A DNA stretch of 64,000 nt from Dethiobacteria bacterium (GCA_050948825.1 JBMNEO010000010.1:52740-116739), one strand, 5' to 3'. Counted from the first letter of the stretch, positions 3,568-55,962 are shown. Program-made: numbers and translations. Notes: generated by a model from the letters alone, not told the origin.

Positions 3568-4680
3568 GTGAAGATCTTGGCCGGCAAAATAAGAATAGGC
3601 GTTTTATTTGGGGGACGTTCAGGTGAACACGCCGTTTCGCTGCTTTCTGCCGCCTCGGTCATGGCCGCGATGGATAAAAACAAATATGATATTATTCCCA
3701 TAGGTATTACAGAAGATGGCCGGTGGCTGGCGGGGGGAGACCCGCTCCAGGCGCTGCGGAAAAAAGAATTAACGCGGGGATGTTTTCCCGCTTCGCTGGT
3801 AACCAATCCTCTGGAACCGGGGCTGTTCCTTTTTGAGGGCGATAAGGCGGTTGAATTTATTCCCCTGGATGTGGTTTTTCCTGTCCTTCACGGGCCTTAC
3901 GGGGAAGACGGCACTGTTCAAGGTTTGCTTGAGCTGGCAGGGATACCCTATGTAGGCGCAGGTGTTCTCTCCTCCGCCGCAGGGATGGATAAAGAGGTGA
4001 TGAAAATCCTTTTCCAGCATAGCGGGCTTCCCGTTGCCGATTTTATTGCCTTTAAGGATCACCGATGGGGGAAGGATAGCAGCTCGATTATTGAATTGAT
4101 CGAGGGGAAAATAGGTTATCCCTGTTTTATCAAACCTGCCAATTTGGGGTCCAGCGTGGGCGTAAGCAAAGCTTTCGGACAGGAGGAGCTTAGAGCAGGG
4201 ATAGAAGCGGCCTTGAGTTATGACAGAAAAGTAATTGTAGAGACCTTTATCGACGGGCGGGAAATAGAATGCAGCGTCCTGGGAGGCGACGAACCGGTTT
4301 CATCAATCCCCGGAGAGATTATCCCCAGCGGCGATTTTTATGATTACCGGGCAAAGTATATCGATAACCGCTCCAGGCTGATAATTCCCGCACCCCTGGA
4401 AGCGGAGGCTGCGGGAAAAATAAGGCGGTATGCTATACAGGCTTTTCAGGCTGTAGAATGCAGCGGCCTGGGGAGAGTTGACTTTTTTTACCGGGAGAAA
4501 GAAAAGGAGATCTACGTCAGCGAGATCAACACCATGCCGGGGTTTACAGAGATCAGCATGTATCCCAGGCTGTGGGAGCATAGCGGCATACCCTACGGGG
4601 AACTGATCGACAAACTGGTGGAGATTGCCCTGGAGAGACAGCGGCAAAAAAGCAGGCTCCTGACCGGATATAAAATATAG
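3568..4680 (+). CDS. ddl: D-alanine--D-alanine ligase
   Basis: [47 protein letters not shown]; start may be TTG 3577. Confidence 0.95.
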
Positions 4681-22791: not shown

Positions 22792-23604
22792 GTGAGACAG
22801 TTACCATCAAAAGTATTGATCAAAGGTGCCGGGGATCTGGCCAGCGGGACCGCCCACCGCCTGTGGCAGGCCGGATTTGATGTTGTCATGCTGGAGCTGC
22901 CGCAACCGCTTGTCGTTAGGCGCAGCGTCTCTTTTGCTTCTGCCGTTTATGGGGGTTCCGTGTCCATTGAAGGGGTTGAAGCGAGGTGTTGCCGGGGGGT
23001 CGAAGAAGCCGACCGCATAGAGGACTTGCTGGAAAAACGAATTATACCCGTATTTATCGATCCGGAGGGTAAGTTGATACAAATCTATCAACCCGATGTT
23101 CTGGTTGACGCCATTCTGGCCAAAAGAAATACAGGCACTTCTATTGGCGATGCGCCCCTTGTTATAGGGCTGGGCCCCGGTTTTGCAGCAGGGAAGGATG
23201 TCCATGCCGTTATTGAAACCCAGCGAGGCCATGATCTGGGCAGAGTAATCTATGAAGGTTGTGCCGCCCCAAACACGGGCGTGCCCGGCGATATAGCAGG
23301 CTTTGCACTGGAAAGGGTGCTGCGGGCACCGGCTGCAGGGGTATTTACAACCCTGAAAAAAATTGGCGACCTTGTTGAAGAAGGCGAGACAGTTGCTGCT
23401 GTAAACGATGTACCCGTTAAGGCGGCAATAAGCGGTGTTCTACGCGGTTTACTTTATCCCGGCCTGGAGGTTGGACCGGGGGCAAAAATTGGAGATATCG
23501 ATCCACGCGGGAAAGAAATAGCTGTTCATACCATTTCTGATAAAGCGAGATCCATAGCGGGAGGGGTGCTGGAGGCAATTTTACATTTGTCATATAACCG
23601 GTGA
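22792..23604 (+). CDS. yqeB: Selenium-dependent molybdenum hydroxylase accessory protein YqeB
   Basis: KGAGDLASG, VDAILAKRN, IGLGPGF, ETQRGHDLG, KIGDIDPR, ISDKARSIAGGVLEA. Confidence 0.92.
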   Translation: MRQLPSKVLIKGAGDLASGTAHRLWQAGFDVVMLELPQPLVVRRSVSFASAVYGGSVSIEGVEARCCRGVEEADRIEDLLEKRIIPVFIDPEGKLIQIYQPDVLVDAILAKRNTGTSIGDAPLVIGLGPGFAAGKDVHAVIETQRGHDLGRVIYEGCAAPNTGVPGDIAGFALERVLRAPAAGVFTTLKKIGDLVEEGETVAAVNDVPVKAAISGVLRGLLYPGLEVGPGAKIGDIDPRGKEIAVHTISDKARSIAGGVLEAILHLSYNR

Positions 23605-23892: not shown

Positions 23893-24729
23893 GTGTGTAA
23901 ATTGATGGAAAAAGATATTTTTGAACACCTTAGTAAGATGGCAGGAAACGCGGAACCTGCCGCCCTTGTTACGATTATAGAATCAACCGGATCTGCTCCG
24001 GGTAAAACGGGCTTTAAAATGCTGGTTGATCTTGAAGGTAATACATTGGGTACCGTTGGCGGCGGCCGGATTGAGGCGACAGTAATCCAGGAAGCAGTAG
24101 AGGCCATTAAAAAAAATGCCTCCCAAATCAGAAAGTACAGGCTGGATAATGAACAAGCCGGAGGGTTGGGAATGATCTGCGGCGGGGATGTAACGGTTTT
24201 TATCGACGTAATTATCCCTCCGGAATCACTTCTCATCATCGGAGCAGGGCATATTGCCCAGCCCCTCGCAGCCATGGCGAAAATTGTGGGTTTTCATGTG
24301 ACCGTGATGGATGACAGGGAGGAATTCTGCAACAGCGAAAGATTTCCGACGGCAGATCAGTGCCTGGTTGGAGAGATACCGGAGCTGCTGCAGAATTGGA
24401 AGATAACCAGGAATACTTACATTACCATTGTAACGCGTGGCCACGAACACGATCAGATAGCCCTGGAAAAAACTCTCCTTTCCGGAGCTTATTATTTGGG
24501 GATGATCGGTAGCGAAATTAAAGTTCAAACGATATATAATAACTTAATGGAAAAAGGTTTTTCCGAAAAAGACCTGGAGAAAGTGCATGCTCCTATCGGT
24601 CTGGATATCAAAGCCATTACCGCAGAAGAGATCGCCGTCAGCATCCTTGCACAGTTAATATTTGAAAAGAACAAGGCTAAAGCTTATAAAGGGGTAAAGT
24701 TTAAAAATAACAACACCTGTCCGGCTTGA
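23893..24729 (+). CDS. xdhC: XdhC/CoxI-family Moco chaperone
   Basis: GSAPGK, GTVGGG, GMICGG, GAGHIA, VTRGH, GMIGS, HAPIGLDI, EIAVSI. Confidence 0.9.
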   Translation: MCKLMEKDIFEHLSKMAGNAEPAALVTIIESTGSAPGKTGFKMLVDLEGNTLGTVGGGRIEATVIQEAVEAIKKNASQIRKYRLDNEQAGGLGMICGGDVTVFIDVIIPPESLLIIGAGHIAQPLAAMAKIVGFHVTVMDDREEFCNSERFPTADQCLVGEIPELLQNWKITRNTYITIVTRGHEHDQIALEKTLLSGAYYLGMIGSEIKVQTIYNNLMEKGFSEKDLEKVHAPIGLDIKAITAEEIAVSILAQLIFEKNKAKAYKGVKFKNNNTCPA

Positions 24730-24999
24730 CAGCTTTGAAATAATAGTATATTTTTAGATTTGAAAGTTTCTAAAGTTATAGTAGCTTTACTAATAAGCGC
24801 AAGCACCGAGTATTAATCATTAATGCCTACGCATTAAGCGCCAGGTATTCAGGCCCTTAATCCTGAACCCTTGTGTTAACTTATCAATACTTTTTTGCGT
24901 TCCCATAAACAACGATGTACGATTATATGCTATATCGCCGGGTTTTGTGTGAGCATGTGGAGGCATTTGTTAATTTATTTAAAGAGCCATGACCTATGC

Positions 25000-25056
25000 C
25001 ACCGTTATACTTATATACATATAACGTCTCGTTATATGTATATAAGTATAACGGTG
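25000..25056. promoter_or_regulatory. Perfect 27-bp inverted repeat; each arm a ModE-like operator
   Basis: CACCGTTATACTTATATACATATAACG-TCT-reverse complement; each arm contains CGTTATA-N10-TATAACG. Confidence 0.6.
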
Positions 25057-25178
25057 ATGAAAGGCGCATATAGATAATATACAGCGTGATTGAAAACTTG
25101 CAGCGGGTATATCTGTTTTCATTCCACACCGAACAGAACCAAATTATTTATATTAGCGATTGGAGAGTTGATGTCGCA

Positions 25179-25841
25179 GTGAAGAAAAACTTGTTTTTAG
25201 AAGGAAATATCCGTCTGGGAAAATCTGCACTGATTCGAGAAATCCTGCTTCCCTTTTTTCCCAAAGTGGGAGGAATTTTTGTGCAGAGGATATTTATCGG
25301 GGAGCGGTATGTCGCGTTTAAATTGCATCCGATAAAAGAAGTGGCGGATTATCGGCTGAATCTATACGTGAACAGTTTAAGTGAAGTGAACAACCTTTTT
25401 CTTTACAGCGACAGCCGGGGTAAATGGCGGCCAAACAAAGAAGTTTTTGAAAACAGCGGGGTTGCATACCTGAAGGAAAGTGTCGAAAAAAACAAGCATT
25501 TAATACTGCTGGATGAATTGGGAGGGGTGGAGCTTGGCTGCCCTGCTTTTATGGAGGCGGTTATGATGGTGTTAAACAGTAAAATCCCCGTGCTTGGTGT
25601 TTTAAAATCCCGGCGAAATGCAGAAAAGCTGGGTGCAGCCCTGGCGGGTAAACAGGCGGGTAATTGCGCGGACAGTGCGTCCGCTGTTTTTGCGGAAAAA
25701 AAAGAAAAGGGGGGTTACGAGGCCTCTTTCCTGCAGCTTATCAAATCCCATCCGGAGCTTGACCTTTTACGTGTTACCGAAAACAATGTTCCGGAAGTCC
25801 AAAGCAAAGTAAAAAAATTTGTGGAGAGGGCCGTTTCGTGA
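25179..25841 (+). CDS. P-loop NTPase (NTPase_1/THEP1-like)
   Basis: LFLEGNIRLGKS Walker A, LILLDELGGVE Walker B; GTG 25179 after GGAGAG. Confidence 0.75.
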   Translation: MKKNLFLEGNIRLGKSALIREILLPFFPKVGGIFVQRIFIGERYVAFKLHPIKEVADYRLNLYVNSLSEVNNLFLYSDSRGKWRPNKEVFENSGVAYLKESVEKNKHLILLDELGGVELGCPAFMEAVMMVLNSKIPVLGVLKSRRNAEKLGAALAGKQAGNCADSASAVFAEKKEKGGYEASFLQLIKSHPELDLLRVTENNVPEVQSKVKKFVERAVS

Positions 25842-26608
25842 GCGTGATGAAAGAATGGACGGACGAACAAATTTTAAATTATTACCTGGGAATCGAGCAC
25901 AGCGATTACCCGCGGGTGTTCTGGGATGCCATGCGGCCGCATCTTGCCGGTTGCACATCCTTGATTGATATCGGGAGCGGCCCGGGAGCATTTACACTGG
26001 TTGCTGCCCGGGATGGTTTTCATGTTCAGGCGGTAGATATAAACAAAAAAAACCTCGATGCCCTGCAGAAGAAAATAAAAGAGCTGGAGTTGGGAAAGGT
26101 AAAGCTTATTTACGGCGATTGGCTGGAGACGGAGGCGGAAAAATGCGATGCGGCTGTCTGTGCATATAGTTTTGGCGGCAGAATCGGCACCGCCCAGGGG
26201 TTTAACAAAATATTTGAGATTGCCGGAAAGGTTGCCTTCTTTATTTCTCCTTATGCAAGCGTTCAAACTGATTTCTTAACCGGAGAGCTCTACAATAAAA
26301 TGGGGATAGAGCCTCCTTCTTTCAGTGGTGACTACCGCGACCTCCTGCAGTTGTTACAAAATCAGGGGAAGGAGGTTGAGTGTAAAATATTCGAATATGA
26401 TTTTGGCATGCCCCTGGCAAGTAAGGATGAGCTCGACAACTGCGTCCTTTACTTGGGAGAAAAACTGGGGCTGCCCCCTACAGATCTTTTTAAGGAGCAT
26501 CTTCAAAAAATTATCACCATGCGAAACGGCCTTTACTGGGTGCCCAACCCCAGGAAAAGCGCCATGATAATCTGGAAAGGGAGAAGTGAAACAAATGACA
26601 ATGATTAA
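25838..26608 (+). CDS. Class I SAM-dependent methyltransferase
   Basis: LIDIGSGPG motif I, AVD motif II; overlaps NTPase stop. Confidence 0.85.
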   Translation: MSVMKEWTDEQILNYYLGIEHSDYPRVFWDAMRPHLAGCTSLIDIGSGPGAFTLVAARDGFHVQAVDINKKNLDALQKKIKELELGKVKLIYGDWLETEAEKCDAAVCAYSFGGRIGTAQGFNKIFEIAGKVAFFISPYASVQTDFLTGELYNKMGIEPPSFSGDYRDLLQLLQNQGKEVECKIFEYDFGMPLASKDELDNCVLYLGEKLGLPPTDLFKEHLQKIITMRNGLYWVPNPRKSAMIIWKGRSETNDND

Positions 26609-27176
26609 CAGATTTTTTATCAGGTTTACTACCTTTGACTTCGTGATTATTGCACTTTTATCAGCTTGCGGGATTGCTACAAAACCTTTTGTCAGGTTTT
26701 TGGCCCAGATATTTACGGGAACCCTGATCCCCATCGGAACGGTAGCCGGTATCTTTTATATGCTCTGGATTGTCCTGGCCTGCGCTATTGTAAAAAAAAG
26801 GGGAACGGCTATTTTAGTCGGCATTGTGCAATCAGTTTTGGTAGTGGTATTTGACATGCTCGGCAACCGCGGTTTGGCTAACCTTCTGGTTTACGTCGTC
26901 CCCGGAGTCACCCTGGAGCTCGCGATGCTGGCCTTCCCGCATTATGTTTCTACGCTTTTCAGCTCGTTTACCGCAGGTGCGGTGTGCAACGCTACCGGTT
27001 CGTTTATCGTTAGCGTGGTTTTTATGCGCCTGGCTTTTATTCCCATGCTGGTTTCATTAATTGTATCCGGGATTTTTGGAGGAATTGGGGGAATTGTGGG
27101 CTATAAGTTATACGCTGTGGTTAACAGTTTAAAGGGCACGGCAAGAGAATACAGCGAAGGAGAAACGCAAGATTAG
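26586..27176 (+). CDS. ECF transporter S (substrate-binding) component, specificity unknown
   Basis: About 190 aa, 6 TM, D..IIALLSA first helix; followed by two ATPases and a T component. Confidence 0.8.
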   Translation: MKQMTMINRFFIRFTTFDFVIIALLSACGIATKPFVRFLAQIFTGTLIPIGTVAGIFYMLWIVLACAIVKKRGTAILVGIVQSVLVVVFDMLGNRGLANLLVYVVPGVTLELAMLAFPHYVSTLFSSFTAGAVCNATGSFIVSVVFMRLAFIPMLVSLIVSGIFGGIGGIVGYKLYAVVNSLKGTAREYSEGETQD

Positions 27177-27223
27177 GTCAAGGCCAAGAAAATAAAAATA
27201 CTGGTGGTGTATAAGCGAAAAGC

Positions 27224-27964
27224 ATGGAAAGCATGGAGCGCCTGAAGGTAGAACATTTATGGTACACATATGAAGGGGGGAATCAGCCGGTTTTAAAAGA
27301 TATTACCTTCAAACTTCTTCAAGGGGAAGCCCTGGGGATTATCGGGCTGAACGGCAGCGGCAAGACCACCATGAGTTACTGCCTTTGCGGCATTATTCCC
27401 CATTACCTGAAGGGAACGCTGGAAGGGCGGGTACTGGTTAACGGAAAAGATACCAGGGAGATCCCTTTATATCAGCTGACCACAGAAATAGGAATTGTCC
27501 TGCAGGATCCGGGTATCCAGCTGCTGATGCCCACGGTAGAGGATGATATTGCCTTTGCCCTGGAGAACCACAACCTCCCCCGCGAGGAGATCAGGGAGCG
27601 TATATACAGGACTATGGAAACGGTGGGCATTACCGGGCTTAAAGACGAAAATCCCAACAACTTGTCGGGAGGCGAGAAACAGCTGGTCGCGCTGGCCACC
27701 GTACTGGCTTTAAACCCGTCCATTATTATTTTTGATGAATCGCTTTCAATGCTTGACGAGCTGGCGGCGCAAAGGATTATAGCGGTCATGCAGAGGTTAA
27801 AAGATGAGGGAACCACACAGGTTATTATCGACCATACTATGAAAGGCTTTGAAGTGTACGACAAAATTTTTATTCTGGAAGAGGGCCGGATTATCTACCG
27901 GGGTTCAAAAGATTTTGCCCTGCGGAATAAAGAGTTTTTAAGGGAACACAGGTTCTTTTTCTAG
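27224..27964 (+). CDS. ECF transporter ATPase (EcfA)
   Basis: GLNGSGKT, LQDP Q-loop, LSGGEKQ, IFDE. Confidence 0.88.
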   Translation: MESMERLKVEHLWYTYEGGNQPVLKDITFKLLQGEALGIIGLNGSGKTTMSYCLCGIIPHYLKGTLEGRVLVNGKDTREIPLYQLTTEIGIVLQDPGIQLLMPTVEDDIAFALENHNLPREEIRERIYRTMETVGITGLKDENPNNLSGGEKQLVALATVLALNPSIIIFDESLSMLDELAAQRIIAVMQRLKDEGTTQVIIDHTMKGFEVYDKIFILEEGRIIYRGSKDFALRNKEFLREHRFFF

Positions 27965-28005
27965 CGCCAAATTATTGCTGAAGTAATCACGTAGCCGGAG
28001 GTGCT

Positions 28006-28686
28006 GTGGTGGCTTTCATTTCACTGCAGGAAGTGAGCTATACTTACAACGGGCGGAAAGAGGCCGCTGTAAAAAATATTTCTCTTAATATAGAAGAAGG
28101 AGAAAAGATTTCTCTTACCGGTTTAAACGGCAGCGGTAAATCTACGTTGGCCAGGCTGATGCTTGGCCTTCTCAAGCCCCAAGCGGGAAAGATCGTTCTT
28201 GACGGCCTCCCGCTGGGGAAATATTCCCTTGTAAAGATTGGGGAAAAAGTGGGTTATGTTGTTCAAAACCCCAGCCAGATGCTCTTTAATACGAGCGTCT
28301 TTAACGAAATCGCCTTTGGCTTGAAATGGAAGGGCAAGGGAAAGGATGAGGTTTACCAGCTCTGTAAAAAATACCTGGAGTTCTTTGAACTGTGGCACCT
28401 GCGGGACAAGCTCCCATTTAATTTGAGCGAAGGACAGAAACAGCTGGTGGTGATCTGCGCTGTATTGGCCTTGCAGCCCCGTTATCTGATTCTGGATGAG
28501 CCGACGAAGAGCATCGACACTTTTCGGAAAAAAAGATTAAAGGATATTTTGCAGGAAATCTGGAGCCTCGGTACCGGAATTATGGTTATCAGCCACGATA
28601 TGGATTTTCTAGCAGACTTTGACGGCAGAAGGATACACATGGTAAAAGGTGAGGTTGTGGAAGATGCGCGTAGATATCAGAACTAA
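28006..28686 (+). CDS. ECF transporter ATPase (EcfA')
   Basis: GLNGSGKS, QNP, LSEGQKQ, LILDEPT, ISHD. Confidence 0.88.
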   Translation: MVAFISLQEVSYTYNGRKEAAVKNISLNIEEGEKISLTGLNGSGKSTLARLMLGLLKPQAGKIVLDGLPLGKYSLVKIGEKVGYVVQNPSQMLFNTSVFNEIAFGLKWKGKGKDEVYQLCKKYLEFFELWHLRDKLPFNLSEGQKQLVVICAVLALQPRYLILDEPTKSIDTFRKKRLKDILQEIWSLGTGIMVISHDMDFLADFDGRRIHMVKGEVVEDARRYQN

Positions 28687-29386
28687 ACTCCTTATAGTGG
28701 CAATTTTTTCCGTTTTGGCCCTGGCATACCAGGATCCCCGGATCCTGGGTATGATCCTGCTTTTGAACCTGTTGACAATTATACTCTTCAGGGTGCCGCT
28801 GCATATTTTTCACGGCTTTAAAGGCTTTATCTTTATGTATGCCGTATTAATGGTTATCCAGAGCTTTTTCGTGAGAGACGGGGAACCGCTGCTCCAGATG
28901 GGTAACATCTACCTTTTAACAACTGATGGAGTTCTTTACGGGATATCCATAATGTTGCGTTTTTTTATACTGGCCGGTTCGGGATTAATATTATTGAATT
29001 GCAACACTGCGGAGTTGATCCTGGCACTGGTCAAATTGCGCATTCCTTACGAGATTGTCTTTATGATACAGTTAGGAATCAGGTTTATTCCGGTATTCAT
29101 GGGCGAACTGCAAAATATCTTTCACGGTATCCAGCTGCGAGGCGTAGACCTGCGCCGGGTATATAAAAGAAAAGTAATCAAAGTATATGTCGGCATTTTC
29201 TCCCCGGTTATCTATAGCGTCTGGCAGAAGGCCGAAAAGCTTTCTATCCTGCTGGAACTTCGCGGCTTTCGCAATTCCTCCACCAGGACATATTACAGAG
29301 ATATATCCCTGGGAAGAATTGATTATGTAATAATGACCCTTTCCTTAATTATCACCGCAGCACTCGTCTACGCAGTGCGACACTAG
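28649..29386 (+). CDS. ecfT: ECF transporter T component
   Basis: DIRTKL, RFIP, two xRG motifs (QLRG, ELRGF); stop codon lies inside a REP-like repeat. Confidence 0.88.
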   Translation: MRLWKMRVDIRTKLLIVAIFSVLALAYQDPRILGMILLLNLLTIILFRVPLHIFHGFKGFIFMYAVLMVIQSFFVRDGEPLLQMGNIYLLTTDGVLYGISIMLRFFILAGSGLILLNCNTAELILALVKLRIPYEIVFMIQLGIRFIPVFMGELQNIFHGIQLRGVDLRRVYKRKVIKVYVGIFSPVIYSVWQKAEKLSILLELRGFRNSSTRTYYRDISLGRIDYVIMTLSLIITAALVYAVRH

Positions 29387-29462
29387 GGACGGTTCTCCCT
29401 GTCGCAAATGCGACAGGGAGAACCGTCCCTAGTGTCGCAGAGAGAACCGGTGCTAGTGTCGC
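29376..29462. repeat. Inverted pair of REP-like palindromes plus partial third
   Basis: TGCGACACTAGGGACGGTTCTCCCTGTCGCA then its reverse complement. Confidence 0.85.
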
Positions 29463-33987: not shown

Positions 33988-34257
33988 GGTCGTGCTAGAT
34001 GGGGAGGTAGCGGTGCCCTGAACCTGCAACCCGCTAAAGCAGGATTGAATTCCTACCCCCGGCCCTTAGCTTTACAGGGTCTGCCTCCGGTAAGTGGTGA
34101 AGAAGCCCTGGTCCTGTGCGGCATAAGCCCATAAACCCCGTCAGGTCCGGGAGGAAGCAGCGGTAAGTGGTGACTTGTGGGTGCCACAGGGGCGCTGGGG
34201 CTGAGCAAACTGCCGGAGTTCCGCCTGGGGGGCGGGGTCAAAGGTAGGTGCACGACC
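33988..34257 (+). ncRNA. ffs: Large bacterial SRP RNA
   Basis: Helix 8 TCAGGTCCGGGAGGAAGCAGC, Alu-like 5' domain, paired ends GGTCGTGC/GCACGACC, upstream of dnaX. Confidence 0.95.
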
Positions 34258-55706: not shown

Positions 55707-55726
55707 AAAGCAAAGAAAATATTGTG

Positions 55727-55884
55727 CATCCGGGTGTCAAAAGACTTAATAGGGAAGCCGGTGAAAGTCCGGCGTGGTCCCGCCACTGTAAGCGGCGAGT
55801 TCTCCCGCAAAAGCCACTGGTCCCAAGGGGCTGGGAAGGTTGGGGGAAAACGTTGACCCGCAAGCCAGGAGACCTGCCCAGATG
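55727..55884 (+). ncRNA. Cobalamin riboswitch
   Basis: AATAGGGAA.CCGGTG.AA.TCCGG, CCCGCCACTGT, GCCACTG, GGGAAGG, B12 box AGCCAGGAGACCTGCC. Confidence 0.95.
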
Positions 55885-55962
55885 CGAGTTCGGCCCCCTT
55901 CGGGTAAAAGGGCAAGGCGAGTGGTAGAACCGCGCGAATTTCCCGTGGTTTTTTTGTTAGGC

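Follow-up and report, generated by a model that had tools for sequence, protein, structure and literature searches.

Within the window analysed here, a stretch of 64,000 nucleotides from the Dethiobacteria genome G000 (2.0 Mb in 12 contigs, 90.7% complete), an operon encoding an NTPase, a methyltransferase and an ECF transporter is preceded by a perfect palindrome. What is this palindrome, which protein might read it, and what does it say about the operon behind it? The best explanation overall, which we regard as probable, is that it consists of paired ModE-type operators, that these would be occupied by ModE_N dimers and control the NTPase/methyltransferase/ECF operon, and that the operon is a member of a molybdenum regulon.

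Two boxes in one palindrome

The arms of the palindrome (25000-25026 and 25030-25056) are 27 nt long, lie 3 nt apart and are 100% complementary, and the whole reads CACCGTTATACTTATATACATATAACG-TCT-CGTTATATGTATATAAGTATAACGGTG. As a preliminary description of this DNA had claimed, the 27-bp inverted repeat is perfect, and each arm contains one 24-bp box of the form CGTTATA-N10-TATAACG (Table 1), which is itself palindromic at 20 of 24 positions. The repeat also occurs in contigs from other sequencing runs. Base composition predicts 0.012 exact boxes per genome. As single-stranded DNA, 25000-25056 folds with -26.5 kcal/mol (z = -10.4), and none of 200 shuffles folded as well.

Table 1. Features at the palindrome and its surroundings. 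Positions are those of the window, except for the last two rows (genome:contig:positions).
Feature	Position	Strand	Remarks
yqeB, selenium-dependent molybdenum cofactor biosynthesis protein	22792..23604	+	TIGR03309, 362.9 bits, cutoff 220
XdhC-family maturation factor	23893..24729	+	PF13478/PF02625; NF045664 298 bits, below cutoff 350
Sigma-70-like promoter match	24726..24754	+	TTGACA-17-TATTTT; directly after the xdhC stop; genus-conserved
Perfect palindrome	25000..25056	.	Two 27-nt arms and a 3-nt spacer
Box 1, predicted ModE-type operator	25003..25026	.	CGTTATACTTATATACATATAACG
Spacer separating the boxes	25027..25029	.	TCT; T>C at 25027 in the contigs of two other runs
Box 2	25030..25053	.	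Exact reverse complement of box 1
Genus-conserved block (3/3 genomes), not a box	25057..25086	+	-10-like GATAAT/TAATAT at 25073-25080
P-loop NTPase, first gene of the operon	25179..25841	+	PF03266; start GTG 25179 after GGAGAG
SAM-dependent methyltransferase	25838..26608	+	Generic class I matches only
ECF S component	26586..27176	+	PF09819
ECF ATPase A	27224..27964	+	
ECF ATPase A'	28006..28686	+	
ECF T component, CbiQ family	28649..29386	+	
ModE_N paralogue, 131 aa	G000:C10:39635-39967		After modD
ModE_N, 133 aa	G000:C7:154724-155122		Directly before a yqeC::mocA fusion

Chimeric reads can yield palindromes, and the contigs of one run (X13) break immediately before the repeat. The probability that the palindrome is an assembly fold-back artefact, named in the preliminary description as a possible refutation, or a chance repeat is nonetheless practically negligible. 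A single contig of run X10 spans 24600-25497 and crosses the whole repeat in one piece, a contig of run X13 spans 24968-25500, and the sole difference in these contigs is the T>C change in the 3-nt spacer, with both arms unchanged. Among the runs listed, 20 from 14 studies contain the stretch; they are labelled as metagenomes of anaerobic digesters or bioreactors. Both boxes also occur in two further genomes of the genus, and the outcome of the 200 shuffles likewise argues against chance.

A census of perfect hairpin-type repeats (arm at least 14, loop at most 10) places the palindrome seventh in length among 36 in the genome and makes it the longest outside a GC-rich REP-like family, to which all six longer ones belong. 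At least 10 such REP-like palindromes are spread across the genome. One of them, with perfect 31-bp arms (29376-29439, or G000:C10:82115-82178; TGCGACA...GGGGACGGTTCTC...), lies directly after the ECF T gene, and a homologue of the REP-associated tyrosine transposase is found at locus L033 of a relative.

ModE boxes are textbook knowledge in Proteobacteria, and experimental tests exist for one methanogen. The likeness of the arms to ModE operators, proposed in the preliminary description, is well supported at the level of sequence, by the geometry of the boxes, by the molybdenum loci at which relatives carry them and by the ModE_N genes considered below. Each box has the 24-bp geometry CGNTATATA-N6-TATATANCG and matches 13 of the 16 specified positions of the E. 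coli ModE consensus, ATCGNTATATA-N6-TATATANCGAT (PMC545781). Shared with the E. coli operator are the 24-bp inverted repeat, the CG ends and the TATA cores (CGNTATA-N10-TATANCG), as well as the location, which in relatives is at or next to the starts of Mo-uptake genes, as at the modABCD and moaABCDE promoters of E. coli. By contrast, the inner positions are AC/GT in the box consensus of the Dethiobacteria lineage studied, CGTTATAC-N8-GTATAACG, and TA/TA in E. coli, and two boxes are adjacent here. The boxes also match, at 11-12 of 14 positions, the ModE motif of M. acetivorans, RTTATGT-N8-RCATAAY, which is needed for binding according to EMSA (PMC12327845). The 7-N8-7 geometry and the RTTAT...ATAAY core are the same, whereas half-site positions 6-7 are GT there and AC here. 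As described for M. acetivorans, several sites may precede one operon and metal transporters are part of the regulon (PMC12327845). A candidate site given for Desulfovibrio, CGGTCACG-N14-CGTGACCG, is unlike the box here (PMC545781).

Paired boxes are also found further afield. When one genome per species was scanned for two exact boxes 2-6 bp apart, two records resulted, one from a Bacillota MAG whose boxes are identical to those of a congener and one from an Alphaproteobacteria MAG (L053). The latter has two exact copies of CGTTATA-N10-TATAACG, separated by 6 bp, immediately before modA/modB/modC, and thus shares the paired arrangement with the locus studied here but differs from it in its target, a classical molybdate transporter, and in the start-to-start distance of the boxes, which is 30 bp instead of 27. 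An apparent third box overlaps the exact pair before modABC in L053 (2975-3054).

In the three of three genus genomes that have the locus, both boxes are the best-conserved part of the 450-bp spacer between xdhC and the operon. The preliminary description had added weaker copies on either side, and these did not withstand closer analysis. The look-alike at 24913-24937 has 4/16 mismatches and a spacer one base too long and is not kept in the two congeners; we judge it a chance match (168 equally good matches occur in the genome, with about 0.04 expected per 450 bp). At 25065-25086 no match with 6 or fewer mismatches was obtained at any spacer from 4 to 11, and these positions belong instead to the conserved block listed in Table 1, which could be a core promoter or another site. 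The sigma-70-like match after xdhC could, judging from its sequence, be an operon promoter with a long leader. Small open reading frames over the repeat (24895-25077 on the plus strand, 24923-25129 on the minus strand) contain no Pfam family, and we regard them as spurious. In the stretch from xdhC to the boxes, two copies of TAAGCGC lie 41 bp from each other (24794-24844), and the aligned stretch of congener G002 contains several TAAGCGC/TAAGTGC copies, possibly another site or an RNA element. Metatranscriptome contigs from one sample (X15, X16) cover 24600-24956 and 25074/25105-25419 and leave the palindrome uncovered, a gap that gives no information on transcription start, as these are contigs of a single sample and can break at palindromes.

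The arms could also be read as one structure. With 27 perfect, AT-rich pairs, a 3-nt loop and -26.5 kcal/mol, the repeat would form a long hairpin, and the stem would sit in leader RNA if the promoter at 24726-24754 were used. It is very improbable, however, that the functional unit is such a hairpin or cruciform, whether as a DNA cruciform, as an RNA terminator, attenuator or processing stem, or as a recombination site. An intrinsic-terminator scan made no call at the repeat, and neither strand has a T-run after it. A search of the spacer against Rfam returned no family at gathering score, so that we rejected the idea of a riboswitch or another RNA family there; at a lax threshold the palindrome matched only sub-threshold miRNA-hairpin models, which are spurious, and there was one snoRNA match with E 0.8. 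Elsewhere in the window, matches at gathering score are a cobalamin riboswitch (55715-55895, 124 bits), an SRP RNA (33990-34255) and five tRNAs.

Comparison within the genus bears most directly on the hairpin. Complementarity between the boxes is 24/24 here, plus 3 nt beyond the boxes, versus 19/24 and 20/24 in the congeners, and the hairpin energies there are -14.3 and -13.8 kcal/mol. This congener complementarity is about that of two near-palindromic boxes alone (self-palindromy 18-22/24), and the differences fall into the unconstrained centre, with no compensatory changes. In most genomes, moreover, the box is single. Since the stem is not conserved and the box mostly occurs once, selection appears to act on the boxes and not on a long stem. 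The cruciform suggested in the preliminary description is thus physically possible, given the folding energy, but the long hairpin is not conserved and lacks comparative support. The perfect 57-bp symmetry is probably, as the sequence comparison suggests, a mutational by-product and not a selected feature. Two near-palindromic boxes would have been homogenised recently in this lineage, one arm on the other, for example by template switching, a mechanism of quasi-palindrome correction that is able to homogenise arms.

The box in related genomes and the operon downstream

In the family, the exact box is present in 15 of 33 genomes, versus 1 of 33 for a reversed control pattern; in the order, the numbers are 26 of 115 and 2 of 115. 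The family has 24 exact boxes, distributed over 22 loci, which were analysed as 8-kb stretches (99 flanking open reading frames of L033-L048 were annotated with NCBIfam and 21 more with Pfam). At seven loci the box precedes an NTPase/transporter operon. Six have it before an operon of MoeA-like, XdhC-family, short ModE_N and YqeC::MocA genes, sometimes running into modA, and at three it stands directly before modABC. At two loci it follows yqeB at a contig end, at two it precedes the gene of a DUF364 protein together with an SsuA-like ABC transporter, in the neighbourhood of MrpORP genes, and two loci are uninformative. Genes of modABC or of Moco maturation adjoin the box at 11 of the 22 loci, and it is because of its loci in relatives that we take the box as the signal of a molybdenum regulon. 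At the two DUF364 loci (L038, G016:C87; L040, G005:C53; box at 4001-4024 in both), the protein is annotated as 'putative heavy-metal chelation', and MinD-like Fe-S ATPases are encoded nearby together with the MrpORP genes.

A one-mismatch search of the family is less informative. The control pattern then matched in 23 of 33 genomes, so that one-mismatch matches are noise unless their context supports them. Context supports two, box 1 of G001 and a site 40 bp before modA in G015.

In G000 itself, scans for exact boxes and for matches with up to 3/14 or 4/16 mismatches found no further box. Targeted scans upstream of modA, tupA, the XDH genes, the MoeA-like gene, modD, both ModE_N genes, mop and yqeB also found none, and the best matches upstream of modA, tupA, the MoeA-like gene, modD and both ModE_N genes had 5/16 mismatches. 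The idea that the same box would stand before modABC/tupABC of this genome therefore fails, with at least 5/16 mismatches there. Since the box occurs at one locus only in G000, its assignment to a regulon rests on the relatives. The modABC genes of G000 (C9:239094-242729), which have no box, are preceded by a gene encoding an HTH domain with a periplasmic-binding-protein-like (PBP) part; this protein is 44% identical to one encoded before modABC in G046 and could be a TaoR/TunR-type regulator. Our literature search found no description of a ModE-type regulon or of ModE boxes in Bacillota, which is not proof of their absence.

The centre of the palindrome is located 150 bp 5' of the likely NTPase start codon, GTG 25179, and purL lies 3' of the operon end at 29386. 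Orthologues of the NTPase were present in 14 of 41 relatives searched. Among the 10 genomes with a match at E<=1e-40, eight (six from the family itself plus a single one from each of two others) have a box with up to 2/16 mismatches directly upstream of the orthologue; the other two are the most distant of the ten, with 40-43% identity. The composition of the operon varies. It comprises NTPase, methyltransferase, S, A and A' in G010, and NTPase, S, A, A' and T, without a methyltransferase, in G021. G004 has a methyltransferase remnant, and no S component was present among the open reading frames examined there. In G044 (L033, G044:C17:23555-31578), the box, at 4001-4024, has a divergent NTPase_1 gene on one side and a type II ABC importer on the other; the importer consists of a BtuC-like permease, an ATPase and a Peripla_BP_2 binding protein and is followed by a methyltransferase. 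The pair of NTPase and methyltransferase is thus associated with two transporter classes. The molybdate importer MolBC is one of the type II importers (PMC4245157).

A role of the downstream ECF unit connected with Mo/W, as claimed in the preliminary description, is supported in that the box ties this unit to molybdenum metabolism through its position before modABC and Moco operons in relatives. A more far-reaching reading, which we put forward tentatively and consider possible rather than likely, is that the NTPase and ECF module constitutes an unrecognised system for Mo/W acquisition or cofactor salvage, governed by a sensor-less ModE-domain protein that would read molybdenum status via a partner or a metabolite. 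A literature search for ECF transporters with a Mo/W or Moco-related substrate found none, which again is not proof of absence. In the protein atlas, the cluster structurally nearest to the S component consists of PF09819 proteins, 36% of which also carry PF00174 (Oxidored_molyb). This co-carriage links the type of S component to molybdoenzymes as a lead only.

A candidate regulator without a sensor domain

No full-length ModE is encoded in G000. Two genes encode the ModE N-terminal domain only (Table 1), and both proteins match TIGR00637 with 62-72 bits (E 4e-17 to 4e-20), which is below the curated cutoff of 98.5. The best solved match of the protein encoded on contig C7 is PDB 2ijl (E 7.5e-12), a stand-alone protein of 135 aa that was deposited under the name 'Molybdenum-binding transcriptional repressor'; the match to E. 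coli ModE (1b9m/1o7l) has E 1.5e-8. In our literature search, no regulon was found on record for 2ijl-type proteins. TOBE is absent from the 131- and 133-aa ModE_N proteins, and the only TOBE match of the genome is a separate 75-aa Mop protein. Of the ModE/TOBE regulator expected in the preliminary description, the ModE part is thus encoded and co-occurs with the sites, but it lacks the TOBE/Mop sensor domain. A split sensor composed of ModE_N and Mop was considered and rejected; Mop orthologues are present in 10 of 33 family genomes, but among the 13 genomes carrying box and regulator together only 4 have one.

The 133-aa protein encoded on C7 is, on comparative sequence evidence, most likely the cognate regulator of the boxes. 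Its identity to the short ModE_N proteins encoded within the box-controlled operons of relatives is 59-68%, versus 34% to the other paralogue and 31% to the N-terminal parts of ModE_N::TupA-like fusions. The recognition-helix regions differ in sequence, with SYSQAW in the C7 protein, SYRAAW in the second paralogue and SYRYSW/SYRYAW in the fusions. Of the 33 family genomes, 13 have both the exact box and a C7-type orthologue, two the regulator only, two the box only and 16 neither (Fisher p 1.7e-5); of the 115 order genomes, 21 have both, 26 the regulator only, five the box only and 63 neither (Fisher p 6e-6), these p-values overstating the case because kin genomes are not independent. Incomplete assemblies and the requirement for an exact match may explain part of the 26 regulator-only and five box-only genomes of the order. 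In relatives the regulator gene lies inside a box-preceded operon, the usual sign of autoregulation, whereas in G000 this operon is dispersed and the region upstream of the regulator gene contains no box.

We consider it unlikely that the boxes are instead operators of a different regulator, be it the second ModE_N paralogue encoded on C10, the TaoR/TunR-like protein with HTH and PBP parts, or an unrelated factor. A second ModE_N gene does exist, with a recognition helix distinct from that of the C7 protein, the HTH+PBP gene is directly upstream of modABC on C9, and an HTH_17+PBP family regulating Mo/W transport is cited in PMC11980592. In two relatives (L035, L041), the box also adjoins a gene for a ModE_N::TupA-like fusion. 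However, ModE_N::PBP fusions and the second paralogue type are present in many genomes without a box, and the fusion is absent from G000, whereas the C7 type is encoded inside box-controlled operons and co-occurs with the box.

Proposed mode of control and implications

If the C7-type protein is the regulator, each 24-bp box would hold one dimer of a small winged-helix protein that corresponds to the N-terminal DNA-binding domain of ModE alone. Occupancy of the boxes would control transcription of the NTPase/methyltransferase/ECF operon (25179-29386), and the operon would thereby join a regulon that in relatives includes modABC and the Moco-maturation operon (MoeA-like, XdhC, ModE_N, YqeC::MocA). 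Binding would repress, as suggested by boxes that overlap or abut the core promoter. In E. coli, ModE represses modABCD, a role stated in PMC11980592 and PMC11672702.

At single-box loci outside the genus, 10 of 16 boxes end 27-33 nt before an RBS-preceded start codon, and transcription would thus start in the box or a few bases after it. The gene-proximal half-site contains a -10-like hexamer, TATAAC. This geometry, as read from the sequence, points to repression by promoter occlusion. The arrangement in the genus is different. Two boxes are present in all three of the genomes with the locus, the first box of G001 with one mismatch, and they are located 98-160 bp before the start codon (125 nt here), versus about 30 elsewhere. 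A hypothetical transcription start near 25085, as would fit the conserved -10-like block that comes after the boxes, would put the box centres at approximately -44 and -71, an activator-like geometry. Repression is more likely than activation here, although not by much. Control by the two boxes may be cooperative, as the preliminary description proposed. Their start-to-start distance, 27 bp here, 28 bp in both congeners and 30 bp in the alphaproteobacterium, corresponds to 206, 240 and 309 degrees of helical rotation, so that neither strict phasing nor a fixed face-to-face contact between the boxes is suggested.

The signal would be molybdenum/tungsten status, sensed by a route other than Mop/TOBE. 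Because the regulator has no TOBE/Mop domain, we infer its responsiveness to Mo/W from the content of the regulon, and such responsiveness is not to be assumed even for ModE homologues. E. coli ModE is activated by molybdate binding to its Mop domain (PMC11672702), and both molybdate-binding Mop domains are missing from the presumed regulator here. The ModE of M. acetivorans keeps one Mop subdomain, unlike the protein here, and its DNA affinity is reported to be unchanged by molybdate in vitro (PMC12327845); sensing may thus be indirect there too. Stand-alone ModE domains of Desulfovibrio species (PMC545781) and PDB 2ijl share with the C7 protein the single N-terminal domain without a sensor, and for the Desulfovibrio domains the route of molybdenum sensing is stated to be unclear (PMC545781).

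In conclusion, ModE-type operators are a kind of site that is already known, and their placement before an NTPase/ECF operon provides a functional lead. The palindrome also provides a clean natural example in which two near-palindromic operators gained perfect symmetry in a single lineage. Within one order of Bacillota from anaerobic digesters, a sensor-less ModE_N protein can be traced together with its box across 21 genomes, so that the question of how molybdenum is sensed by a ModE domain lacking Mop can be put to a concrete system. The box also serves as a lead to the function of an uncharacterised ECF transporter that is encoded together with a THEP1-like NTPase and a methyltransferase, as in eight genomes from three families it connects the operon with the uptake of molybdate and the maturation of Moco.
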